Assembly (NCBI GenBank): GCA_017427525.1
Contig: JAFRSP010000018.1
Coordinates: 1,684-65,683 of the forward strand
Source of the DNA: Clostridia bacterium
GTDB lineage: Bacteria; Bacillota; Clostridia; Oscillospirales; Feifaniaceae
Reading direction: 5' to 3'
DNA length: 64,000 nt
Shown piece by piece: positions 41,859 through 58,281 of this stretch. The notes beneath the pieces are model-generated. The model made no database searches. It was given only the letters and a program-made list of their open reading frames with translations, and was not told where the DNA came from. Position numbers and translations under genes: made by a program. Positions within the stretch are counted from its first letter, which is position 1. Each line of letters begins with the position of its first letter.

Positions 41859-41995
41859 AGATACGCCTCCTTTGAAACAGCTTCGTTTCCTTAACAAACT
41901 GCAAGATGTTTCCTATTTTTTCTTCACTATACCATACTTTTGAAACCCATGCAAGCAAGAAGAGGGGTTCTTTTCTGCTCTCTTTCCTGCTTTTC

Positions 41996-43915
41996 CTATT
42001 CTTCCGAGGTCAGGTTTTCGATCTTCTCCGAGAGCTCGCCCCATCTTTCATAGAGGGCGTTCAGCCGCACCTGCAGCTCTTCCTGTCTCTCTCCGAGGGC
42101 GGAGAGCGCCTCATAGTCGCTGGCCTTTTCCGCCATCTTCAGCGACAGAGCCTGCAGCTCTTCCTCACACCCCGCGATCTCCTTTTCACAGGCGCTCAAG
42201 GCGCGCTGCAGCGCCCGTTCCAGCCGAAGCGGAGAGACGCTCCGCTCCGGCTGGGAGACGCCGCTCTTCTCCTTTGGCTTTTCCCTTGGCTGCTGTGCCG
42301 CGTGTGCGGAGCGCGCCGCCTGATAGGCTTCAAAGTCACCGTGAAAATCCGCGATGGTTCCGTTTTCCACCGTGAGGATCCGGTCGGCCATACGGCTGAT
42401 AAAATAACGGTCATGGGAGATAAAAAGCAGCGTGCCCTCATAGTCCTCCAACGTTTTTTCAATCCACTCCCTCGAGGCGATGTCGAGATGGTTGGTCGGC
42501 TCGTCGAGCAAAAACAGATTGATGGGGTCAAAGGAGAGCAAACAGTGCTTGAGCCTGGCCCGCTCCCCGCCGGAGAGCTCCCGAACCAGCTTGAAGACCT
42601 CCTCCCCCACGAAATCGTAGGCGGCGAGGCGGTTGCGTGCGATCTGAGCCGTGACCCCCCTTCTCTCCCAAAGCACTGTGTCCAGCAGGGTACGCTCCGG
42701 GTGCTCAAATATGATATTCTGGGGCATGAGTCCGACCTTGACATTGGCACCCCACTTGACCCTTCCATCCAGTGCCTCCAGTTCCCCACAGAGCATGCGG
42801 AGAAAGGTGGTCTTCCCTGCGCCGTTGTCGCCGAGCAGCGCCACGCGCTCTCCTTTTTTGAGCTCGAGAGAGATCCCCTGCAGAAGCGCCTTTCCATCGT
42901 ATCCGACCGAGACGTCCTTGAGGGTCAGCACATCGAACCCGCTGCGTCCTCCATCGGCCAGGGTGGCGCGGATGCGGCGGTTGTCGGCATGGAGACGCTG
43001 GGTTTGGTTCGCACGCAGACGCTCGATCCGCTTGCGCATGCTGAGCGCCGCACGGGAAAGCCGCTCGGTCTGGATCCCCCATCCGAGCAGCTTTGTCGAG
43101 ATGGTCTCCAACCGCTTGATCTCCTTTTTCTCCTGCTCATAGCGGCGTTCGAGCTGCTCGGTCAGCTGCTCTTTATAGTCCATATACTCGCTATAGTTCC
43201 CTGCATAGTCGGTGATCTTCCCCTGCTCCAGCTCCATAATGCGGTTGACCGTTCGGTCGAGAAAGGTCCTGTCGTGGGAGATCAGCAGCACGGTTCCCCG
43301 ATACTGCGTGAGAAAACCCTCCGTCCACTCGATCGAGGCCATGTCGAGATGGTTGGTCGGCTCGTCCAGCAGCAGAATGTCCGGACTTGCAAGCATGATG
43401 CGCGCCAGATTGACCTTGGTCTTCTCCCCTCCCGAGAGGGTTTCAAAGGTTCTGGTAAGAAATTCTTTTTCAAATCTCAGCCCCGAAATCACCCGAGCGA
43501 ACTGCACATCCTGTTCATAACCGCCGAGACTCTCATAACGCGCATGCAAGGCGTCGTACCGCCGCAGCAGCGCGGAAGAGGAATCCTCCTCCATTTGTTT
43601 GCGCAGTCTGCCCAGCTCTTCTTCCATGGCGTGCAGGGGAGCAAAGCCCGAACGGATCACCTGCTCCACCGCCGTCCCCGCCGCATACCTGGGGATTTGC
43701 TCGAGCACCTCCATGCGCAGCCCCGGCGCGACCGACACGCTGCCTCCGTCAGGCAAAAGCTCGCCCGAAAGCAGGCGAAACAGGGTCGACTTCCCGCTCC
43801 CATTCCGTCCGATCAGACCGACCCGCTCCCCTTCCCGCAGCTCAAAGCCGATCTGAGAGAGTACCGTATTCTCCCCGAAGGATTTTTGAAGCTCTGTTGC
43901 CGTGATGCAAATCAT
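41996..43915 (-). CDS. ABC-F family ATPase (two ABC cassettes, no TMD, C-terminal coiled-coil extension)
   Basis: Two Walker A motifs (GRNGSGKST and GDNGAGKTT), two LSGGE signatures, an inter-domain linker and a coiled-coil tail. Confidence 0.9.
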   Translation of the reverse strand: MICITATELQKSFGENTVLSQIGFELREGERVGLIGRNGSGKSTLFRLLSGELLPDGGSVSVAPGLRMEVLEQIPRYAAGTAVEQVIRSGFAPLHAMEEELGRLRKQMEEDSSSALLRRYDALHARYESLGGYEQDVQFARVISGLRFEKEFLTRTFETLSGGEKTKVNLARIMLASPDILLLDEPTNHLDMASIEWTEGFLTQYRGTVLLISHDRTFLDRTVNRIMELEQGKITDYAGNYSEYMDYKEQLTEQLERRYEQEKKEIKRLETISTKLLGWGIQTERLSRAALSMRKRIERLRANQTQRLHADNRRIRATLADGGRSGFDVLTLKDVSVGYDGKALLQGISLELKKGERVALLGDNGAGKTTFLRMLCGELEALDGRVKWGANVKVGLMPQNIIFEHPERTLLDTVLWERRGVTAQIARNRLAAYDFVGEEVFKLVRELSGGERARLKHCLLSFDPINLFLLDEPTNHLDIASREWIEKTLEDYEGTLLFISHDRYFISRMADRILTVENGTIADFHGDFEAYQAARSAHAAQQPREKPKEKSGVSQPERSVSPLRLERALQRALSACEKEIAGCEEELQALSLKMAEKASDYEALSALGERQEELQVRLNALYERWGELSEKIENLTSEE

Positions 43916-44095
43916 ATCGCATTCGATTCCTTTTCGTTGTTGCTTGCATTTGATCCTCCGCAGACAGAAAGGCGCGCAGGGCCAAGACCCTGCACGCCTT
44001 AAAGCTCAGGAAGGCCTTTCGACGCGGCGGGAAAGGAGACAGGCCGCCTATACCCTCATCCAAGTGCCGCGGCGCCTTTCCCTTGGCATGAATCT

Positions 44096-49132: not shown

Positions 49133-51757
49133 TCACCCGTTCGGCCAGAGGCGCTTCGTATCCCCATAGGGCAGGGAGATGCGGTAAACCGTATATCGGT
49201 GACTGCTTCGCGCATCCGGCCAAGCAAGCGTCAGACTGTCGTTTGTGATCGACTGGAGAAATAGGCTGCGCCGCACCGTGGAGAAATCCTCTCCGGGGAG
49301 CGGGCAGAGGAAATGAAGAATGCCCTCCCGCTCACTCAGCCTGTAAATCCCCCGTACACCGTCGCGCTGCCCGACAAAATAGCAGGTCTGTCCCCTGCGT
49401 CCGATCAGAAAGGCGCGCTCCAGTATGGGGGAAAAGCCTGCGTCGGTCAGATAGCCAAGGCTACCCTCCCAACCGGAGGAGGCATATGCATAGTGCCAAG
49501 TCGTGACCAAAAACCCGTTTTTTCCTTCATCCAGCACCGTGATCTCCCCCATAGCATCCGGCATATCGAACAGGGTGACTCGCTCCTCCCCTTCTATGAC
49601 GGACAGCGTGATCCGATAGCGGTAGCCCGCGGTATTCTCCAATTTTTCCAAACGGCGCTCTTCGACCAGGGTTCGTCGGCTGTCTTCATAAAACACATGT
49701 TCCTCTACGCCGCCCGCCATCAGTTCGGTATAGCGCTTGGCAAGCGGGGCCGGTTCATAGCGGTAGGAAACGGGAGCCCACTCTGCCGCAGGCGGAAGTC
49801 CCGTGAAGGGATTCTGCTCTTCCGGACCGGCAGCGCAAAGACAGGAAGTTCCCTCTTCATCCTTTCCTTCATACACCGTGATCCGCAGGGAGAGATCGGC
49901 TGAACCAAGCGAATCGGTTTCTCCCCAGAGACATCCGGTTCCCTTTCCGGTTTCCCTCTGCGGCGTTGCCTTCACATTCAGAGCGAGCGTGAGATAGAAC
50001 TCTCCCTCCTCAAGAATCGAAACGCTGCCCAGACTGTAATCAAGCAGTCCCAGCGCATCGCCGCGATAGAGCAGATCTTTCAGCAAAGCGTCTGCGTAGG
50101 TCAGCGCCGCCTTCTCTCTGTCGCTTCCGATCGGCAAAACAGGGTAAAGTGCATAGGGCGGTGTGGGAACCTCCGCCACAGCCAGCTGACCGTCCCTCTG
50201 GGCAACCTGCACGACCGTGAAGAGCGGAGTGTCGCCGAAGAGGCGCTCGCCGGTGCTGTGCGGCAACAGATAGGCCGTTCCGGTAGAGGTGTCGGCCACA
50301 AGACAGCCCTCCTCCTGCCGTTCCAGCAGCAGAAGTCCTGCCCCGGAAAGTGCAAGCTGCGCGGCATTGTCGAGCACGGGACGCCGACTCTCCTCCAGGG
50401 CGTTCAGCAGAATGTATTCTCTCTCCCGGAGCCCGTACCAGCCGGGATTCTCCCCAAAGGGCGCCGAAAAAATCGCATCATACACAAAGGGCAGCTGCTC
50501 GTTTCCTTCAAGATCCACGGCGCCCCATAGTCCGTTTTTACGCACTACAAGGGCCCTTGTGTCCTCCGTCTCATACCAGAGAGTCAAGGAAGGCTGCTCT
50601 CCCGAGAGCGCTGCGGACCCATCTTCCGTCTGGTAGGTAAAATGCCCCACGTCCATATAGGCTCCGATCGCCTCATATTCATAGGGAAGACACATTTTCC
50701 CGCTTTTCAAATCCATGACGCCCCAAGCACCGTCTACTCTGCGCAGCGCGATGAGCATGTCTTCAATCAGCGCTGGGCCGCCGTCTTCCCCTCCGAAGCT
50801 ATAGCCGTGCCCCACCGCCAAACAATCCTGATCCGTCAGAGGGAGAATCCCCCCTTCCGAGGCCATCCAAAGACGCTGCATCCCGATCGGATCGGTCGTC
50901 ACCACCAAATCGGCGTCTGTTTCAGGGAACTCTATGGCTCGATACTGCGCGCTCAGCAGCAGCACGCCCTCTATGCTGTAGAGTCCCAAACTACCGTCCG
51001 GTCCCCGATAGAGATATCCATAGTGACAGGGCGTGAAGCTGCCCGGCATGCTTGGAAAAAGCGCGCCGGATTTCAGAGAAAACAGCGTCTGTCCCTGCTC
51101 GTCTTCTACCGGAAATGCGGGAGCGAACAGAAACGGCTCCTGCCTGACTGCCTCGCTCAGCAAGAACCCATATCCGTTCACGAGTGCGGCAATCGTCTCT
51201 TCGGCATAGTTCTTTGTCTGCAGCGCGAGCTTCATCCCTTCCTCTTCCCATTGGATGAAACAGCCAAAAAGCATCTGCGCGTTTTCCAGAGGAACCAGCA
51301 CCTCTCCCCCGCGCCGCAGCAGCGTTCCCTGTACGCGATTGTATAAGGGTTCTTCTCCAATCACGCAGATTTTTCCGCCTTCCTGAAGCCGCACAAGCTC
51401 CCTGCCTGCCGCGTCCGAAACCAAAAGAGAAAGCGCGCCGTTCTGCTCGGCCTGCGAAACCTCGATTTCCGGAAGCAGAGAATCCATCAGCGCCGCGTCG
51501 ACATAGAGGATGCCATCTTCCCGATACAGAAGACGCTCCGGCGCGGGAACCGGCTGCAGATCGATCGTGAGCTCCGGTTCCAGATACCCCGAGGAGGGTT
51601 GAACTTCCCTGAGCCACGGCATCACAAGGGCGGCAATCGCCGCTCCAACCGTTAAAACTGTTATAAACACCAACAGCCAACTTGGGATCGGTTCTCCTTT
51701 GAGTCTCTTTTTCTTCTGTTCCAAGCCAGGTTTCCCTCCTCTCACATGGTTTTTCAT
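49133..51757 (-). CDS. Large membrane-anchored WG-repeat (KWG-like) protein of unknown function
   Basis: N-terminal TM helix (WLLVFITVLTVGAAIAALV). WG-type repeats such as DGAWGVMDLKSGKMCLPYEYEAI and NGLWGAVDLEGNEQLPFVYDAI. Confidence 0.6.
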   Translation of the reverse strand: MKNHVRGGKPGLEQKKKRLKGEPIPSWLLVFITVLTVGAAIAALVMPWLREVQPSSGYLEPELTIDLQPVPAPERLLYREDGILYVDAALMDSLLPEIEVSQAEQNGALSLLVSDAAGRELVRLQEGGKICVIGEEPLYNRVQGTLLRRGGEVLVPLENAQMLFGCFIQWEEEGMKLALQTKNYAEETIAALVNGYGFLLSEAVRQEPFLFAPAFPVEDEQGQTLFSLKSGALFPSMPGSFTPCHYGYLYRGPDGSLGLYSIEGVLLLSAQYRAIEFPETDADLVVTTDPIGMQRLWMASEGGILPLTDQDCLAVGHGYSFGGEDGGPALIEDMLIALRRVDGAWGVMDLKSGKMCLPYEYEAIGAYMDVGHFTYQTEDGSAALSGEQPSLTLWYETEDTRALVVRKNGLWGAVDLEGNEQLPFVYDAIFSAPFGENPGWYGLREREYILLNALEESRRPVLDNAAQLALSGAGLLLLERQEEGCLVADTSTGTAYLLPHSTGERLFGDTPLFTVVQVAQRDGQLAVAEVPTPPYALYPVLPIGSDREKAALTYADALLKDLLYRGDALGLLDYSLGSVSILEEGEFYLTLALNVKATPQRETGKGTGCLWGETDSLGSADLSLRITVYEGKDEEGTSCLCAAGPEEQNPFTGLPPAAEWAPVSYRYEPAPLAKRYTELMAGGVEEHVFYEDSRRTLVEERRLEKLENTAGYRYRITLSVIEGEERVTLFDMPDAMGEITVLDEGKNGFLVTTWHYAYASSGWEGSLGYLTDAGFSPILERAFLIGRRGQTCYFVGQRDGVRGIYRLSEREGILHFLCPLPGEDFSTVRRSLFLQSITNDSLTLAWPDARSSHRYTVYRISLPYGDTKRLWPNG

Positions 51758-53662: not shown

Positions 53663-54009
53663 GGGGGTGCAATGGTTTCGACGGGGGTCTTGAAGCGGGA
53701 GAAGCAAGCCGAGTTGCGAGGACTCGTTAAACATCGCACCCTATAAATGAAAGAACAACGCTAACGTTGCTCTCGCGGCCTAACTAGGCCGCCGTCTGCC
53801 CTGGGAGGACCACGGCCCGGGTGTCAGGCGTCGTCAGTGGTGCACGTGAGGCGGGTAAGCTTTGCCCCGCCCATGAATCATGAAGCTACCGAATGGAGCA
53901 GCCGGCCGCCTGGCGGCTCAACTGGGGAATCTCAAATACGCGGCTAAGCTTGTAGAAACTCCCGTGAACGGGCTTTCGGACAGGAGTTCGATTCTCCTCA
54001 CCTCCACCA
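53663..54009 (+). ncRNA. ssrA: tmRNA (SsrA)
   Basis: 5' GGGGGTG pairs with 3' CACCTCC-A-CCA, including the G3.U alanine identity pair. T-arm is GGAG-TTCGATT-CTCC. Internal tag frame AAG AAC AAC GCT AAC GTT GCT CTC GCG GCC TAA (53751-53783) ends in ...NVALAA*. Lies directly downstream of smpB. Confidence 0.93.
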
Positions 54010-54066: not shown

Positions 54067-54203
54067 ATACGGGATATTACGTTATAGTTTTTGATTCGAT
54101 CAATATGAATTCAGACGGAATCGCCATGAAAAGCCGTATTGCCGCGATCCCGCATTGTTTAGATCGTCTCAACCTTTATGGCTTTTATGGTTTTTTGCAA
54201 AGA

Positions 54204-54233
54204 TTGACATGCATTGCCTTTTAAGGTTATGAT
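54204..54233 (+). promoter_or_regulatory. Strong sigma-A-type promoter for the 2-TM orphan gene
   Basis: TTGACA (54204-09), 18 nt, TATGAT (54228-33). Confidence 0.55.
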
Positions 54234-54278
54234 TCGAGCAGAAAAACATAACCATATTGTCTTAAAGAAGGTTCCGGG

Positions 54279-54995
54279 ATGAAATCAAAGATCACTTCGC
54301 CTAGATCAAAAAAACTATACACCGCCAACAATAAGATATATTGCGTTCTAGTCGTTTTATTAATTGTCGTTATCACGGTCATTTTGGCAATTGAAAACCG
54401 TTCGATAGTTTGGTCAGAAACGGCAAATTCCATCCTTACAGGTATTCTGAGTGGATTGTTGTCATCTGTTGTTGTTGCATGGTTTATTGATTTGGCAACC
54501 TGCAAAAGGAAAAATGATCATATTGAGCATCTGGTCAGTCGTGATCATGAGTCTTTAAAACTGTGGATCAATGACTTTTTTCAGTCAATGTCAAATTGTT
54601 TGCAACCCCAAAGCATTCAAACTTCCAGAAATATCGAATCTCTATACGATGAATTCGTGGAACAAATAGGCAGGGTCGATCATGCAAAGGTTTTGATCGG
54701 TGATGATGATTATTATAATGGTTTAGTTGGCCTATATGTGAGCATCAATCTTATTATTTCAACAGTTGATAAGCTTCTGTCGGGCGAAGAAAAGTCATAC
54801 ATGCTGCAAAAATACAGTGACCTCTCTTCTTTTTTAACCTTAAGCAAGTCGATGTCTGATTTGAGGGACAATCTTTTTAATAACGGAAACCACCGCTATG
54901 ATTTCATTTTTGTAGGCATATGTGATTTTCTTTCGACTATTCTGCCGTTTGCAGACTTTTTAAACAAGAAGTATTCCACTGCCAAACAGGAATAA
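54279..54995 (+). CDS. Orphan 2-TM membrane protein with a helical C-terminal domain (no recognisable family)
   Basis: Two N-terminal TM helices (about aa 20-38 and 51-72) followed by about 165 aa of predicted helices. Very low GC compared with the flanks. Confidence 0.6.
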   Translation: MKSKITSPRSKKLYTANNKIYCVLVVLLIVVITVILAIENRSIVWSETANSILTGILSGLLSSVVVAWFIDLATCKRKNDHIEHLVSRDHESLKLWINDFFQSMSNCLQPQSIQTSRNIESLYDEFVEQIGRVDHAKVLIGDDDYYNGLVGLYVSINLIISTVDKLLSGEEKSYMLQKYSDLSSFLTLSKSMSDLRDNLFNNGNHRYDFIFVGICDFLSTILPFADFLNKKYSTAKQE

Positions 54996-55081
54996 ATCCA
55001 TTGACAGGATTTCCTCCGATAAGGCGAACAACGGAAATGAACCCGTATCCATACCAACAGACAGCAGTTTCAATGCAACAA

Positions 55082-55121
55082 ACTCAGAGGCAAGGCATGC
55101 GCCTTGTCTCTGAGTTTTTCT
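55082..55121 (+). terminator. Rho-independent terminator insulating the 2-TM gene
   Basis: 15-bp stem ACTCAGAGGCAAGGC / GCCTTGTCTCTGAGT (one G.U pair), 4-nt loop, T5. Confidence 0.8.
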
Positions 55122-55238
55122 GTCGTCAACGGCATCTGACGTCTGATTCATCCAACGATTTCCATCTTCGTCCCATTTGTCCCTATCATTCTTTCACCCA
55201 TTCAATATGATGAAAGCAATGCCTCTCAGACAAAACGA

Positions 55239-55267
55239 TTGAAAAGACTTCTTTTCAATGCTATAGT
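55239..55267 (+). promoter_or_regulatory. Promoter for the Nudix-like/DpnI-like pair
   Basis: TTGAAA (55239-44), 17 nt, TGcTATAGT extended -10 (55262-67). Confidence 0.55.
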
Positions 55268-55305: not shown

Positions 55306-56661
55306 ATGCATAAGGCCGCGACGGGAGCGAATGTCATGACCCAATTTCAGTCTTGGATAGATGCCGTCAATGCCAACAACGGCGTGATTCAAATTGCCCT
55401 GACTGTTTTTCAGATCCTCATCACCTTTTTTGGATTTTTGCTGATCACTCGAAAGCAAATCCACAGGGACCGGTATGAGGAACGCCTCAATCAACTGAAA
55501 AAAACAGTAGACGCCCTGACCGTCAGCCGCAACGATTTTGCGGAAAGGGCGCTGGCACTGTATCGGGAGCATTTTCGCTCCGACCCCGATTGCAGCGAGT
55601 TTGTGGAGCATGGGCACCTGATCTATCGCAATGGCTGGGTCAACTGCAAGGATTCACAGGGGCGATTTTATCCCCTCTCCTCCTTCACCCCCAAGATCGC
55701 CTCCCGGTATACCCCGCCGGCGCCGAAAAAGAACCACACCCTTCCAGATCAGCAGGAAAGCTATGCCGATAACGTGAAGTTTTACCTGGGAAAGACCCTG
55801 ATGGATCTCCCGCTCTATGGGCTGAATGAGGTCCGCCTGCATCCCGACGAAATCGAAATCACGGTGAATTTGGGCTCCTATTTTGACTTTTACAACACCT
55901 GCGAATACAGGGGATATGAAATGGCCTATGCCCGCAGAATCCTGGGGAAAACGGCCGTTTCCGCCAAAACGCTTCCCGCGCGCTACGGCAAAAACAACGA
56001 GGGGCTGAATCTTTTCAACACTAGCAACCGCTTCCCCGGCATCGGCATCAACACCGTGACCATTTTGAAAAACGTGCTGGACGATCAGGAGCCTGACCGC
56101 GATCCGCCCATGCGCGACTTCTTCCTGATGCACAAACGCTCCAAACAGGTGGCCGAGGGAATCGGAAACTATCACGTGATACCCGCAGGTTCCTATCAGC
56201 CGCTGAAGGACTATCTGGACCACAGCGACGAAACCCGTGCGGAAACCATGAAGGATACCGTGCTGCGGGAATTCGGCGAAGAGATCAAGGACTATGAGGA
56301 ATTCATCGATCTAAACACCTCGCAGCTCCTGCAAAACCTGGATCGACTGCTCGACCCCTATTTTCTGGGCATCGGGTTTGAGCCGCTGAACACCAAGACG
56401 GAGGTTCTCTCTGCGCTGATTCTCGACCTGGAACAGCCGAAAATCCGCGCGCTGTTCCAAGGACAGCGTCACTATTCACAGCTCCAGACGCTGCTTGACC
56501 GAAACAACAATTACGAGGGAGAAATCCACCTCTGCCCGCTGAATTGCAGCACCCTTCGGCAATATGAAAACGACTTCCGTTCCACCGCTTCCATGAAGGA
56601 GATCATGCGGATTTTGCAGCTGGAGGAAAACCGTGCCTTTTTCCATGTGCAAAACATCTGA
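55306..56661 (+). CDS. Membrane-anchored protein with a C-terminal Nudix-fold-like domain carrying a degenerate Nudix box; function unknown
   Basis: One N-terminal TM helix (VIQIALTVFQILITFFGFLLIT). FLMHKRSKQ...YHVIPAGS...E-x7-REFGEEI (56188-56283) matches the E-x7-RE-U-x-EE core of the Nudix box, but there is an insertion after the Gly. Start is uncertain (TTG 55279, ATG 55306 or ATG 55336). Confidence 0.55.
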   Translation: MHKAATGANVMTQFQSWIDAVNANNGVIQIALTVFQILITFFGFLLITRKQIHRDRYEERLNQLKKTVDALTVSRNDFAERALALYREHFRSDPDCSEFVEHGHLIYRNGWVNCKDSQGRFYPLSSFTPKIASRYTPPAPKKNHTLPDQQESYADNVKFYLGKTLMDLPLYGLNEVRLHPDEIEITVNLGSYFDFYNTCEYRGYEMAYARRILGKTAVSAKTLPARYGKNNEGLNLFNTSNRFPGIGINTVTILKNVLDDQEPDRDPPMRDFFLMHKRSKQVAEGIGNYHVIPAGSYQPLKDYLDHSDETRAETMKDTVLREFGEEIKDYEEFIDLNTSQLLQNLDRLLDPYFLGIGFEPLNTKTEVLSALILDLEQPKIRALFQGQRHYSQLQTLLDRNNNYEGEIHLCPLNCSTLRQYENDFRSTASMKEIMRILQLEENRAFFHVQNI

Positions 56662-56786
56662 AACAGCTGCAGGCGACTGTGCCATTCTTTTAGAATCCGG
56701 ATCGTGTTTCCCTGTTGTCTTCTCCTTTTTGTCGGCAACGAGACTCTCGCGCTTCCTTTCGATTCTTTCGGTTTTAGGGGGCAGCT

Positions 56787-57558
56787 ATGAATTTACAAAT
56801 GGACTCCTCTTTAGCGGAAAAATACAACAGCGCTTCTCAAAAGGCCCGTATCGTAACCGAGTCCTAGGTAGCAGCGAACATGTTCTGTCCCCTGTGCGGG
56901 AATCTTCATATTTCGCATTTTGAGAATAACAGGCCAGTTGCAGATTACTTCTGTCCGCACTGCGGAAATCAGTTTGAACTCAAAAGCAAAAACGGCACGG
57001 CACTCAAAAAAATAGCGGACGGCGCTTACTCGACCATGATCGAAAGAATCACCAGTTTTGATCATCCGGACTTCTTGTTCATGTCATATACAAAATCTGA
57101 TTGGATTGTCCGAAACCTCTTTTTTTGTCCCCAAGCATTTCTTTACGCCTGATATCATCGAAAAGAGACCGCCTCTTCGCCCAACTGCAAGGAGGGCAGG
57201 ATGGATCGGTTGTAATATCAATCTAAGCCAAATACCCGCAACAGGAAGAATCCCCATCATCGAAAATGGGGTCAAAATTGATAAAACCATTGTGATAAAA
57301 CGGGCTTCCGCTGCAAATGCCTTGAATACTACGGATATCCTTGCGCGCGGTTGGCTGTTGGATACGTTGATGTGTGTTGAAAAAATCGGCAGGGTTTCTT
57401 TTGCATTATCTGAAGTATATGCATTTGAGGACGAGTTGGCTTTGAAACACCCTGACAATCATAACATAAGGGCAAAGATCAGGCAGCAACTCCAGGTTCT
57501 GAGAGACAGAGGGATCCTCGAGTTTACCGGTTTGGGAAAATACCGGAGGGTGCAATAA
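56787..57558 (+). pseudogene. DpnI / Dam-replacing-protein family methyl-directed (GmATC) restriction endonuclease, disrupted by an in-frame TAG (56865-56867) and a +1 frameshift in a T7 run (57120-57126)
   Basis: The reconstructed 256-aa product aligns end to end with my memory of S. pneumoniae DpnI (254 aa): SQKARI.TE, CP.CGN...HFENNRPVAD..C.HC...FELKSK, GAY.TM, RKPL.PTARRAGWIGCNI.LSQ.P..GRI and KIRQQLQ.LRD..I.EF.G.GKYR. Listed ORFs 56880..57152 and 57058..57558 are the two halves. Confidence 0.8.
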
Positions 57559-57583
57559 GAACAGCCTCCCTTTCCCTTTTTCA

Positions 57584-57625
57584 ACAAAAACAGCGTCTGC
57601 AAAAGCAGACGCTGTTCCTTTTTTG
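57584..57625. terminator. Bidirectional terminator between the DpnI-like gene and trkA
   Basis: ACAGCGTCTGC-AAAA-GCAGACGCTGT, with an A-rich 5' flank and TCCTTTTTTG 3' flank. Confidence 0.8.
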
Positions 57626-57633
57626 CAAACGCA

Positions 57634-58281
57634 TCAGGTATGGAAGCACTTTTGAATGGCCTTGAGGTCCCCCAAAACCAGGATGGTCTTGTCGCGGTCC
57701 AGCGCGGTCTCCGGCGTGATCGAAAGATTGACGGTTCCGTTCTCCTTCACCGCCATGATGTTGATTCCGAATTGCTTGCGGATATCGATCTGGCCCACTG
57801 TTTTGCCGACCCAGTCTTCGGGAATGGTGAGTTCAAAAATGGCGTGCTCCTCATCCAGCTTGATGTAGTCCAGAATATGGGTGGAGGAGTAGCAGATCGC
57901 AGCCCACTGCGCCATTTGCTTTTCGGGATTGATCACCTCGTCTGCACCGTTGCGCAGTAAAAACTTCGCCTGCACCTCGCGGTTGGCGCGGGATACCACA
58001 TAGCGTCCGCCGAGCTCCTTAAGCAGCGACGTGGTCTCGAGCGAGCTTTGGAATTCGTCTGCAATGGTGACGATGCAGACGTCAAAGCTGCTGATTCCCA
58101 GCGACTGCAGAAAGGTTTCGTTTGTACTGTCTCCGATCTGCGCATCCGTGACAAAGGGCAGGATGGCATTGATCCGATCTTCGTTTCTGTCGACCGCCAT
58201 AATCTGATGGCCGAGTTCGCTCAACTCCTTTGCAAGCATGAAGCCGAAATTGTCGAGACCGATTAACAGAATGGATTTCAT
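57634..58281 (-). CDS. trkA: TrkA/KtrA-type K+ uptake regulatory subunit (RCK_N + RCK_C)
   Basis: 215 aa with a Rossmann-like N-terminus (ILLIGLDNFG, where the second Gly of GxGxxG is replaced by Asp) and an RCK_C domain. Adjacent to trkH. Confidence 0.85.
   Translation of the reverse strand: MKSILLIGLDNFGFMLAKELSELGHQIMAVDRNEDRINAILPFVTDAQIGDSTNETFLQSLGISSFDVCIVTIADEFQSSLETTSLLKELGGRYVVSRANREVQAKFLLRNGADEVINPEKQMAQWAAICYSSTHILDYIKLDEEHAIFELTIPEDWVGKTVGQIDIRKQFGINIMAVKENGTVNLSITPETALDRDKTILVLGDLKAIQKCFHT

Follow-up and report, generated by a model that had tools for sequence, protein, structure and literature searches.

The 64-kb window, by which we mean the whole stretch of DNA that was analysed, very probably carries a real pseudogene that arose recently from the gene of a DpnI-type (type IIM, Gm6ATC-dependent) restriction endonuclease on the chromosome of an uncultured Clostridia bacterium. 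Two ordinary mutations abolish the product: a G-to-A transition has turned the codon of an invariant tryptophan, Trp27, into TAG, and a slipped-strand +1 insertion has lengthened a T6 run, encoding Phe-Phe, to T7, and with both in place a full-length protein cannot be made. By homology, the intact enzyme would cut incoming Dam-methylated DNA by means of a PD-(D/E)XK domain and a winged-helix domain, both of which are predicted to read Gm6ATC. The annotation should read pseudogene of the DpnI family in place of two hypothetical ORFs. Its parts are listed here by position in the window.

56776-56781, + strand: Shine-Dalgarno-like AGGGGG, 5 nt before the ATG, read from the sequence.
56787-57558, + strand: the dpnI-like pseudogene as a whole, 256 codons once repaired, recognised by Pfam, PDB 4esj and PADLOC matches.
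56865-56867, + strand: TAG nonsense codon in place of Trp27; all nine conspecific alleles have G at 56866.
56868-57119, + strand: frame-0 segment, codons 28-111, with the Cys4 zinc site and the PD-(D/E)XK core, from the translation and the family alignment described below.
57006-57012, + strand: A7 run, unbroken in the window, at which the conspecific contig L003 has a +1 A frameshift.
57120-57126, + strand: T7 run, one T longer than the T6 of nine conspecifics, shifting the frame after Phe113.
57127-57558, + strand: +1-frame segment, codons 114-256 and the TAA, with the methyl-binding loop and the winged-helix domain, from the translation, the DpnI_C match and the same alignment.

The dpnI-like frame begins at the ATG at 56787 and reads MNLQMDSSLAEKYNSASQKARIVTES. 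The TAG, which differs from the TGG codon of Trp27 by the G-to-A change at 56866, lies two residues after the catalytic Glu25 (the role of this residue is described in PMC3424567). Beyond the TAG, frame 0 reads on as VAANMFCPLCGN...SDWIVRNLFF and ends at the TGA at 57150-57152, 11 codons after the start of the T run, while the DpnI-like sequence is found in the +1 frame from GTC at 57127 as VPKHFFTPDIIEK..., a reading that is written out as VPKHFFTPDIIEKRPPLRPTARRAGWIGCNI... and extends up to the TAA at 57556-57558. Deleting one T and restoring TGG in place of TAG yields the 256-aa repaired protein. An uninterrupted two-domain ORF is absent from the window, as the frame is broken by the TAG at codon 27 and by the +1 frameshift after codon 113. 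An earlier note on this DNA had described the Shine-Dalgarno sequence, the ATG, the TAG, the T7 run, the continuation in the +1 frame and the 256-aa repair, and every coordinate and reading holds. When dpnI was scanned for restart codons that could serve the 3' part, none preceded by a Shine-Dalgarno sequence was found in the +1 frame. Met32 is a restart candidate preceded by just a weak AGGT, and a product begun there would be without the catalytic Glu25 and would still run into the frameshift, ending 11 codons on. A remote possibility is that the surviving 3' part could act as a stand-alone winged-helix reader of Gm6ATC.

The DpnI-like reading of the repaired protein is not a matter of chance. 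It matches the Pfam profile DpnI (PF06044) at 2.2e-77 over residues 1-181, covering profile positions 1-182 of 183, the winged-helix profile DpnI_C (PF17726) at 6.4e-29 over residues 186-253, and the PADLOC model mREase_II, which represents type II methyl-directed restriction enzymes, at 1.2e-95. In addition, the crystal structure of R.DpnI (4esj) aligns with it end to end (E 2.4e-79), a full-length match that bears out the colinearity with DpnI given in the earlier note. The repaired protein was also aligned with 29 database proteins that are 57-98% identical to it. In DpnI, the catalytic residues are E25, D53, E64 and K66, and two CxxC motifs provide a Cys4 zinc site (PMC3424567, PMC4117772); the methyl-binding cleft is made up of L129, R135 and W138 packed against G140 (PMC4117772). 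All four catalytic residues and both pairs of zinc ligands are kept in the repaired protein and are invariant across the 30 sequences, with C34, C37, D53, C56, C59, E64 and K66 lying in the frame-0 segment. The equivalents of the methyl-pocket residues, namely L130, R136, W139 and G141, are present in the methyl-binding loop of the +1-frame segment and are likewise invariant in the alignment. Trp27 is invariant in all 30 sequences as well, and it is with this residue that the TAG aligns, the Trp of the DpnI motif TEDWV, as the earlier note had stated. Since all of the key residues and, in the repaired reading, Trp27 are still in the window sequence, the gene was a fully equipped DpnI orthologue until very recently.

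Among the closest known systems is R.DpnI of Streptococcus pneumoniae (type IIM; PDB 4ESJ, 4KYW), with which the repaired protein is colinear throughout its PD-(D/E)XK domain and its winged-helix domain. Judged by the alignment, the two share the catalytic residues E25/D53/E64/K66, the Cys4 zinc site and the Leu/Arg/Trp/Gly methyl pocket. There are also clear differences. The window ORF is interrupted by a stop at W27 and by a +1 T that follows codon 113, and R.DpnI is encoded in the pneumococcal dpn cassette, whereas the window gene has ssrA and trkA as its neighbours on a Clostridia chromosome.

Alleles from the same species show the undamaged gene. The conspecific set consists of nine contigs (L001-L009) with 95-99% DNA identity to the window, in which the gene order orf451-dpnI-trkA-trkH-DJ-1-rubrerythrin is the same as that of the window; the related contigs originate from ruminant-gut metagenomes and MAGs. 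P0001, the nearest protein in the databases, is 98% identical to the repaired protein and 256 aa long, and its cluster is encoded on these nine contigs. All nine conspecific alleles (9/9) have TGG at 56865-67 and T6 at the T run, and dpnI is intact in eight of them. Intact alleles such as MBQ6059472.1 (GCA_017427125.1), and also that of GCA_016283055.1, show 98% protein identity and identical synteny to the window, but encode the full 256 aa with TGG and T6, in contrast to the broken allele of the window. The former record is titled 'MAG: restriction endonuclease [Clostridia bacterium]'. The exception is L003 (ENA ERZ28654536 scaffold_6182, 611-1382), which has A8 in place of the A7 at window 57006-57012, so that its dpnI is split into pieces of 91 aa and 158 aa, with all of the neighbouring genes intact. 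Values of pN/pS for dpnI among L001, L004, L007 and L009 range from 0.12 to 0.18, and the gene is therefore maintained elsewhere, that is, it is under purifying selection in the sister strains. A metagenome-wide scan with a DNA pattern that spanned the T run and allowed T6 to T8 returned one contig (21,240 bp), apparently another copy of L001.

Overall, the Pfam and PDB matches, the conspecific alleles and the 30-sequence alignment support the central claim of the earlier note, that a DpnI-family gene has been inactivated by a nonsense codon and a frameshift at a T run. Two comparisons that the note had proposed agree with this claim: a similarity search with the repaired translation gives significant DpnI-family matches, the closest being the 98% identical protein of 256 aa, and the orthologs comprise eight intact alleles of nine together with one, in L003, that is broken at another site.

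Because a frameshift in a homopolymer is involved, the reality of the lesions must be considered. The true gene might be intact (TGG, T6), with a homopolymer miscall and a base error in the window, and this reading has in its favour that indel errors classically fall in homopolymer runs, that the related records are metagenome assemblies and MAGs, and that other MAG-derived DpnI loci likewise break at A/T runs. However, a look-up of the exact orf451 protein of the window led to two separate assemblies from two other samples, L067 and L068, that contain the same allele. Over 18,695 bases, the 83.7-kb scaffold L067 (SAMN15829926) shares 99.995% identity with the window, and for L068 (SAMN15829925) the identity to the window is 100% across 6,720 bases. 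The two match window positions 56700-57650 exactly and carry both the TAG and T7, so that T7 occurs in all three assemblies of the TAG strain, as opposed to T6 in the nine conspecific alleles; in neither L067 nor L068 is a DpnI gene called at the locus. These two assemblies come from neighbouring BioSamples of one study and represent independent read sets, probably of the same circulating strain. From the XIEF21 assembly labels, we infer that this is the ruminant gut study of Xie et al. 2021, in which PCR-free libraries and Illumina NovaSeq 150-bp reads were used (PMC8199421), and other strains of the same study were correctly called as T6. Furthermore, in a comparison with L001, which shows 98.6% identity to the window over 17.2 kb, the extra T is the sole indel that breaks a coding frame, and the window assembly is thus not riddled with homopolymer errors. 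A substitution error and an indel error within one 772-bp gene would also be an improbable coincidence. An intact gene disguised by miscalls is therefore highly improbable and, because the lesions are reproduced in independent read sets, both are mutations and sequencing error is excluded as their source. Among the options left by the earlier note, that of sequencing error is refuted by the identical TAG and T7 in L067 and L068 and by the comparison with L001, and that of genuine gene decay is supported.

The loss is recent, since the rest of the sequence retains every functional residue, and since beyond the two lesions no drift is yet detectable: pN/pS between the window allele and the other conspecifics, with the stop codon excluded, is 0.09-0.18. 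As this range shows no relaxed constraint, the evidence for decay is confined to the two lesions. A relative-rate excess in dpnI is no safe evidence for decay. Window-only substitutions number 9 in the 772 bp of dpnI versus 10 in the flanking genes, which span 3,239 bp (P=0.005), corresponding to 11.7 per kb in dpnI versus 1.5-4.4 per kb in the flanking genes, but a cluster at window 57150-57156 matches the family consensus and pN/pS gives no sign of relaxation. This cluster contains three substitutions in 7 bp, where the window encodes TPDIIEK, which is the family consensus, and the nine other conspecific alleles encode TPGMIEK. The TPDIIEK of the window is probably ancestral and TPGMIEK probably derived in the other conspecifics. 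The latter resembles either several neighbouring bases changed together or a small conversion tract, in the other lineage.

The presence of two distinct conspecific alleles with +1 changes at different homopolymers (T6 to T7 in the window, A7 to A8 in L003) might suggest a phase-variable switch, in which the T tract, and perhaps A7 too, toggles the enzyme by slipped-strand mispairing, with the window in the OFF state. In Neisseria, restriction-modification genes are well known to vary in phase through homopolymers, and the genes of this kind in Neisseria, Haemophilus and Helicobacter resemble the window gene in being inactivated through a change in homopolymer length (PMC6789123). The window tract, however, is short (T6/T7), is accompanied by a nonsense codon and shows no sign of tract selection. 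The working tract is merely T6 and is a Phe-Phe codon pair inside the family-conserved FFFVPKHFF, while known contingency tracts are considerably longer than T6. An OFF allele that is otherwise intact, as expected of a contingency locus, is not seen either: the window allele contains the TAG, which cannot be reversed by slippage, and T7 is fixed together with it in three assemblies. Frameshifts at A/T runs in unrelated species are, moreover, expected from plain mutation bias. A switch of this kind, which the earlier note had offered as one option, is thus quite improbable, with a working state of T6 and a nonsense codon beyond the reach of slippage.

More distant relatives of the gene have similar lesions. 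When contigs of species-representative genomes, among which the species of the window is not represented, were scanned with the repaired protein, 56 loci were obtained, all with at most 57% identity and scattered over many phyla. Two of the 56 are frameshifted at A/T runs: L057 (240-1003) has one frameshift, at a T7 run, and L061 (211-971) has two, at T7 and A7 runs. A third locus, L063 (166-360), is a winged-helix remnant only and contains a stop. Together with L003, these lesions show the A/T runs in dpnI to be ordinary weak points for mutation, and DpnI pseudogenes to be common. The two independent homopolymer frameshifts among a handful of distinct conspecific alleles might also suggest that DpnI in this species has been repeatedly switched off by selection and not by drift, which we consider improbable. 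If this were true, the A/T runs could act as crude, low-rate mutational switches, and lineages might give up m6A-dependent restriction when it becomes advantageous to have mobile DNA with Dam methylation, or a Dam gene itself.

A different way to keep the gene functional would be recoding, in which readthrough or reassignment of the TAG, combined with a +1 ribosomal or transcriptional slip on T7, would deliberately produce a low level of full-length enzyme. A U7 run is slippery in principle, and low expression would curb the toxicity of a nuclease. However, two independent rare events would both be required, and neither feature is conserved: the 29 database proteins of the alignment, like eight of the nine alleles from conspecifics, come from uninterrupted single ORFs with TGG. 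T6 is found in each of the nine conspecific alleles, and the 29 database sequences likewise contain no extra T there. Since no relative conserves either feature, programmed recoding is excluded in practice, its probability being close to nil.

With a recent pseudogene as the preferred reading, the gene may have been lost because selection was relaxed, because of its cost, or because it conflicted with a GATC methylase that the strain had acquired, each of which is possible. In the last case, a prophage or plasmid, for example, would have brought in a Dam-type GATC methyltransferase and so made DpnI self-toxic, and the gene would have been killed or its loss selected. As is well established, Dam methylation and DpnI-type enzymes rule each other out, and in Neisseria the dam-replacing gene (drg) and dam are alternatives at one locus (PMC516771, PMC4269198, PMC6789123); that dpnI is kept intact in the sister strains also fits such a conflict. 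On the other hand, no DNA adenine methyltransferase was found within the 64-kb window, in which, among ORFs of at least 150 aa, a convincing [DNS]PP[YFW] motif occurs in RsmD alone, and the frequency of GATC in the window is unremarkable, with 489 sites observed versus 474 expected, so that the site is neither avoided nor enriched. A conflict with Dam as the specific cause is conceivable but unlikely.

The gene is chromosomal, the other genes in the window including those for SmpB, a P-type ATPase, RsmD and TrkAH. Its immediate surroundings contain the following features.

53663-54009, + strand: tmRNA gene (ssrA), found by ARAGORN and by Rfam RF00023 (167.7 bits).
54092-55218, + strand: low-GC (36-42%) cassette of ~1.1 kb with orf238 (54279-54995), from the GC profile and conspecific comparison.
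55306-56661, + strand: orf451, the upstream gene on the same strand, with a 125-nt gap to dpnI, intact in all conspecifics.
57589-57616, + strand: terminator-like hairpin with a 12-bp stem and then a T-rich tail, between the convergent dpnI and trkA.

A variable segment that contains orf238, orf451 and dpnI starts just 3' of ssrA, which forms its left edge. The orf238 cassette is present in the window, L001, L067 and L068 and missing from L007, L008 and L009, and in L004 (GCA_017427125.1) the DNA upstream of window position 54918 differs and encodes a Mob_Pre relaxase. Because of this presence and absence of the cassette and the relaxase in L004, the ssrA-proximal site behaves as an insertion hot spot. 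A search for att-like direct repeats flanking the segment between ssrA and trkA returned nothing convincing. The loss of dpnI fits the usual turnover of defence genes in variable chromosomal segments. As for expression, a promoter scan placed a promoter-like site at 55239-55267, preceding orf451. With this site ahead of orf451, no terminator-like site found in the gap between the two genes, and the strong hairpin after dpnI, orf451 and dpnI may be co-transcribed.

The GC content of dpnI is about 45-47% versus 55.7% for the window, which is consistent with horizontal acquisition. In this respect, it resembles Neisseria Drg / NmeBII ('dam-replacing gene', Pfam 'Dam-replacing family'), which belongs to the same Pfam family, PF06044, and is likewise encoded by an acquired gene with a GC content below that of its host: 40.5% versus 52% for drg (PMC4269198), as compared with about 45% versus 55.7% here. 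Unlike drg, the window gene carries no evidence of having replaced dam, lies between ssrA and trkA, and is inactive.

The locus thus belongs to a well-known family of restriction enzymes and became a pseudogene recently. This is a routine event, one more example of defence-gene turnover beside ssrA with little importance beyond annotation. It reveals that strains of one gut-microbe species differ in whether a methyl-directed restriction gene is intact or broken, and the coexisting strains of the two kinds could provide a natural comparison of what m6A-dependent restriction costs and gains in the rumen or gut.

Some further features of the region deserve mention. The protein encoded by orf451 (451 aa) has no Pfam, NCBIfam or PADLOC match and has a hydrophobic N-terminal stretch. 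It was considered as a conserved partner of DpnI and rejected as such, since it is absent beside the 56 distant DpnI genes and its own homologues stand alone. Its family is small, with ~40 proteins in Oscillospiraceae and Firmicutes/Bacillota MAGs, every named one of which is called 'hypothetical protein'. P0161, a relative of 629 aa, carries a fused TIR_2 domain and is encoded beside CAP12-PCTIR_TIR genes, which hints at a role in defence.

In the case of the tmRNA, ARAGORN predicts the tag peptide ERTTLTLLSRPN, followed by a stop. As tmRNA tags usually have a hydrophobic ending of the ...LAA type, and the predicted ERTTLTLLSRPN lacks such an ending, the resume codon may be mis-set; the Rfam match of the tmRNA is itself strong. 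Finally, the window contains two other long ORFs: one of 698 aa (41906-44002, + strand) has no Pfam match, and one of 874 aa (49133-51757, - strand) has no Pfam or NCBIfam match and is conserved, at a length of 863 aa, in L001 and L067.
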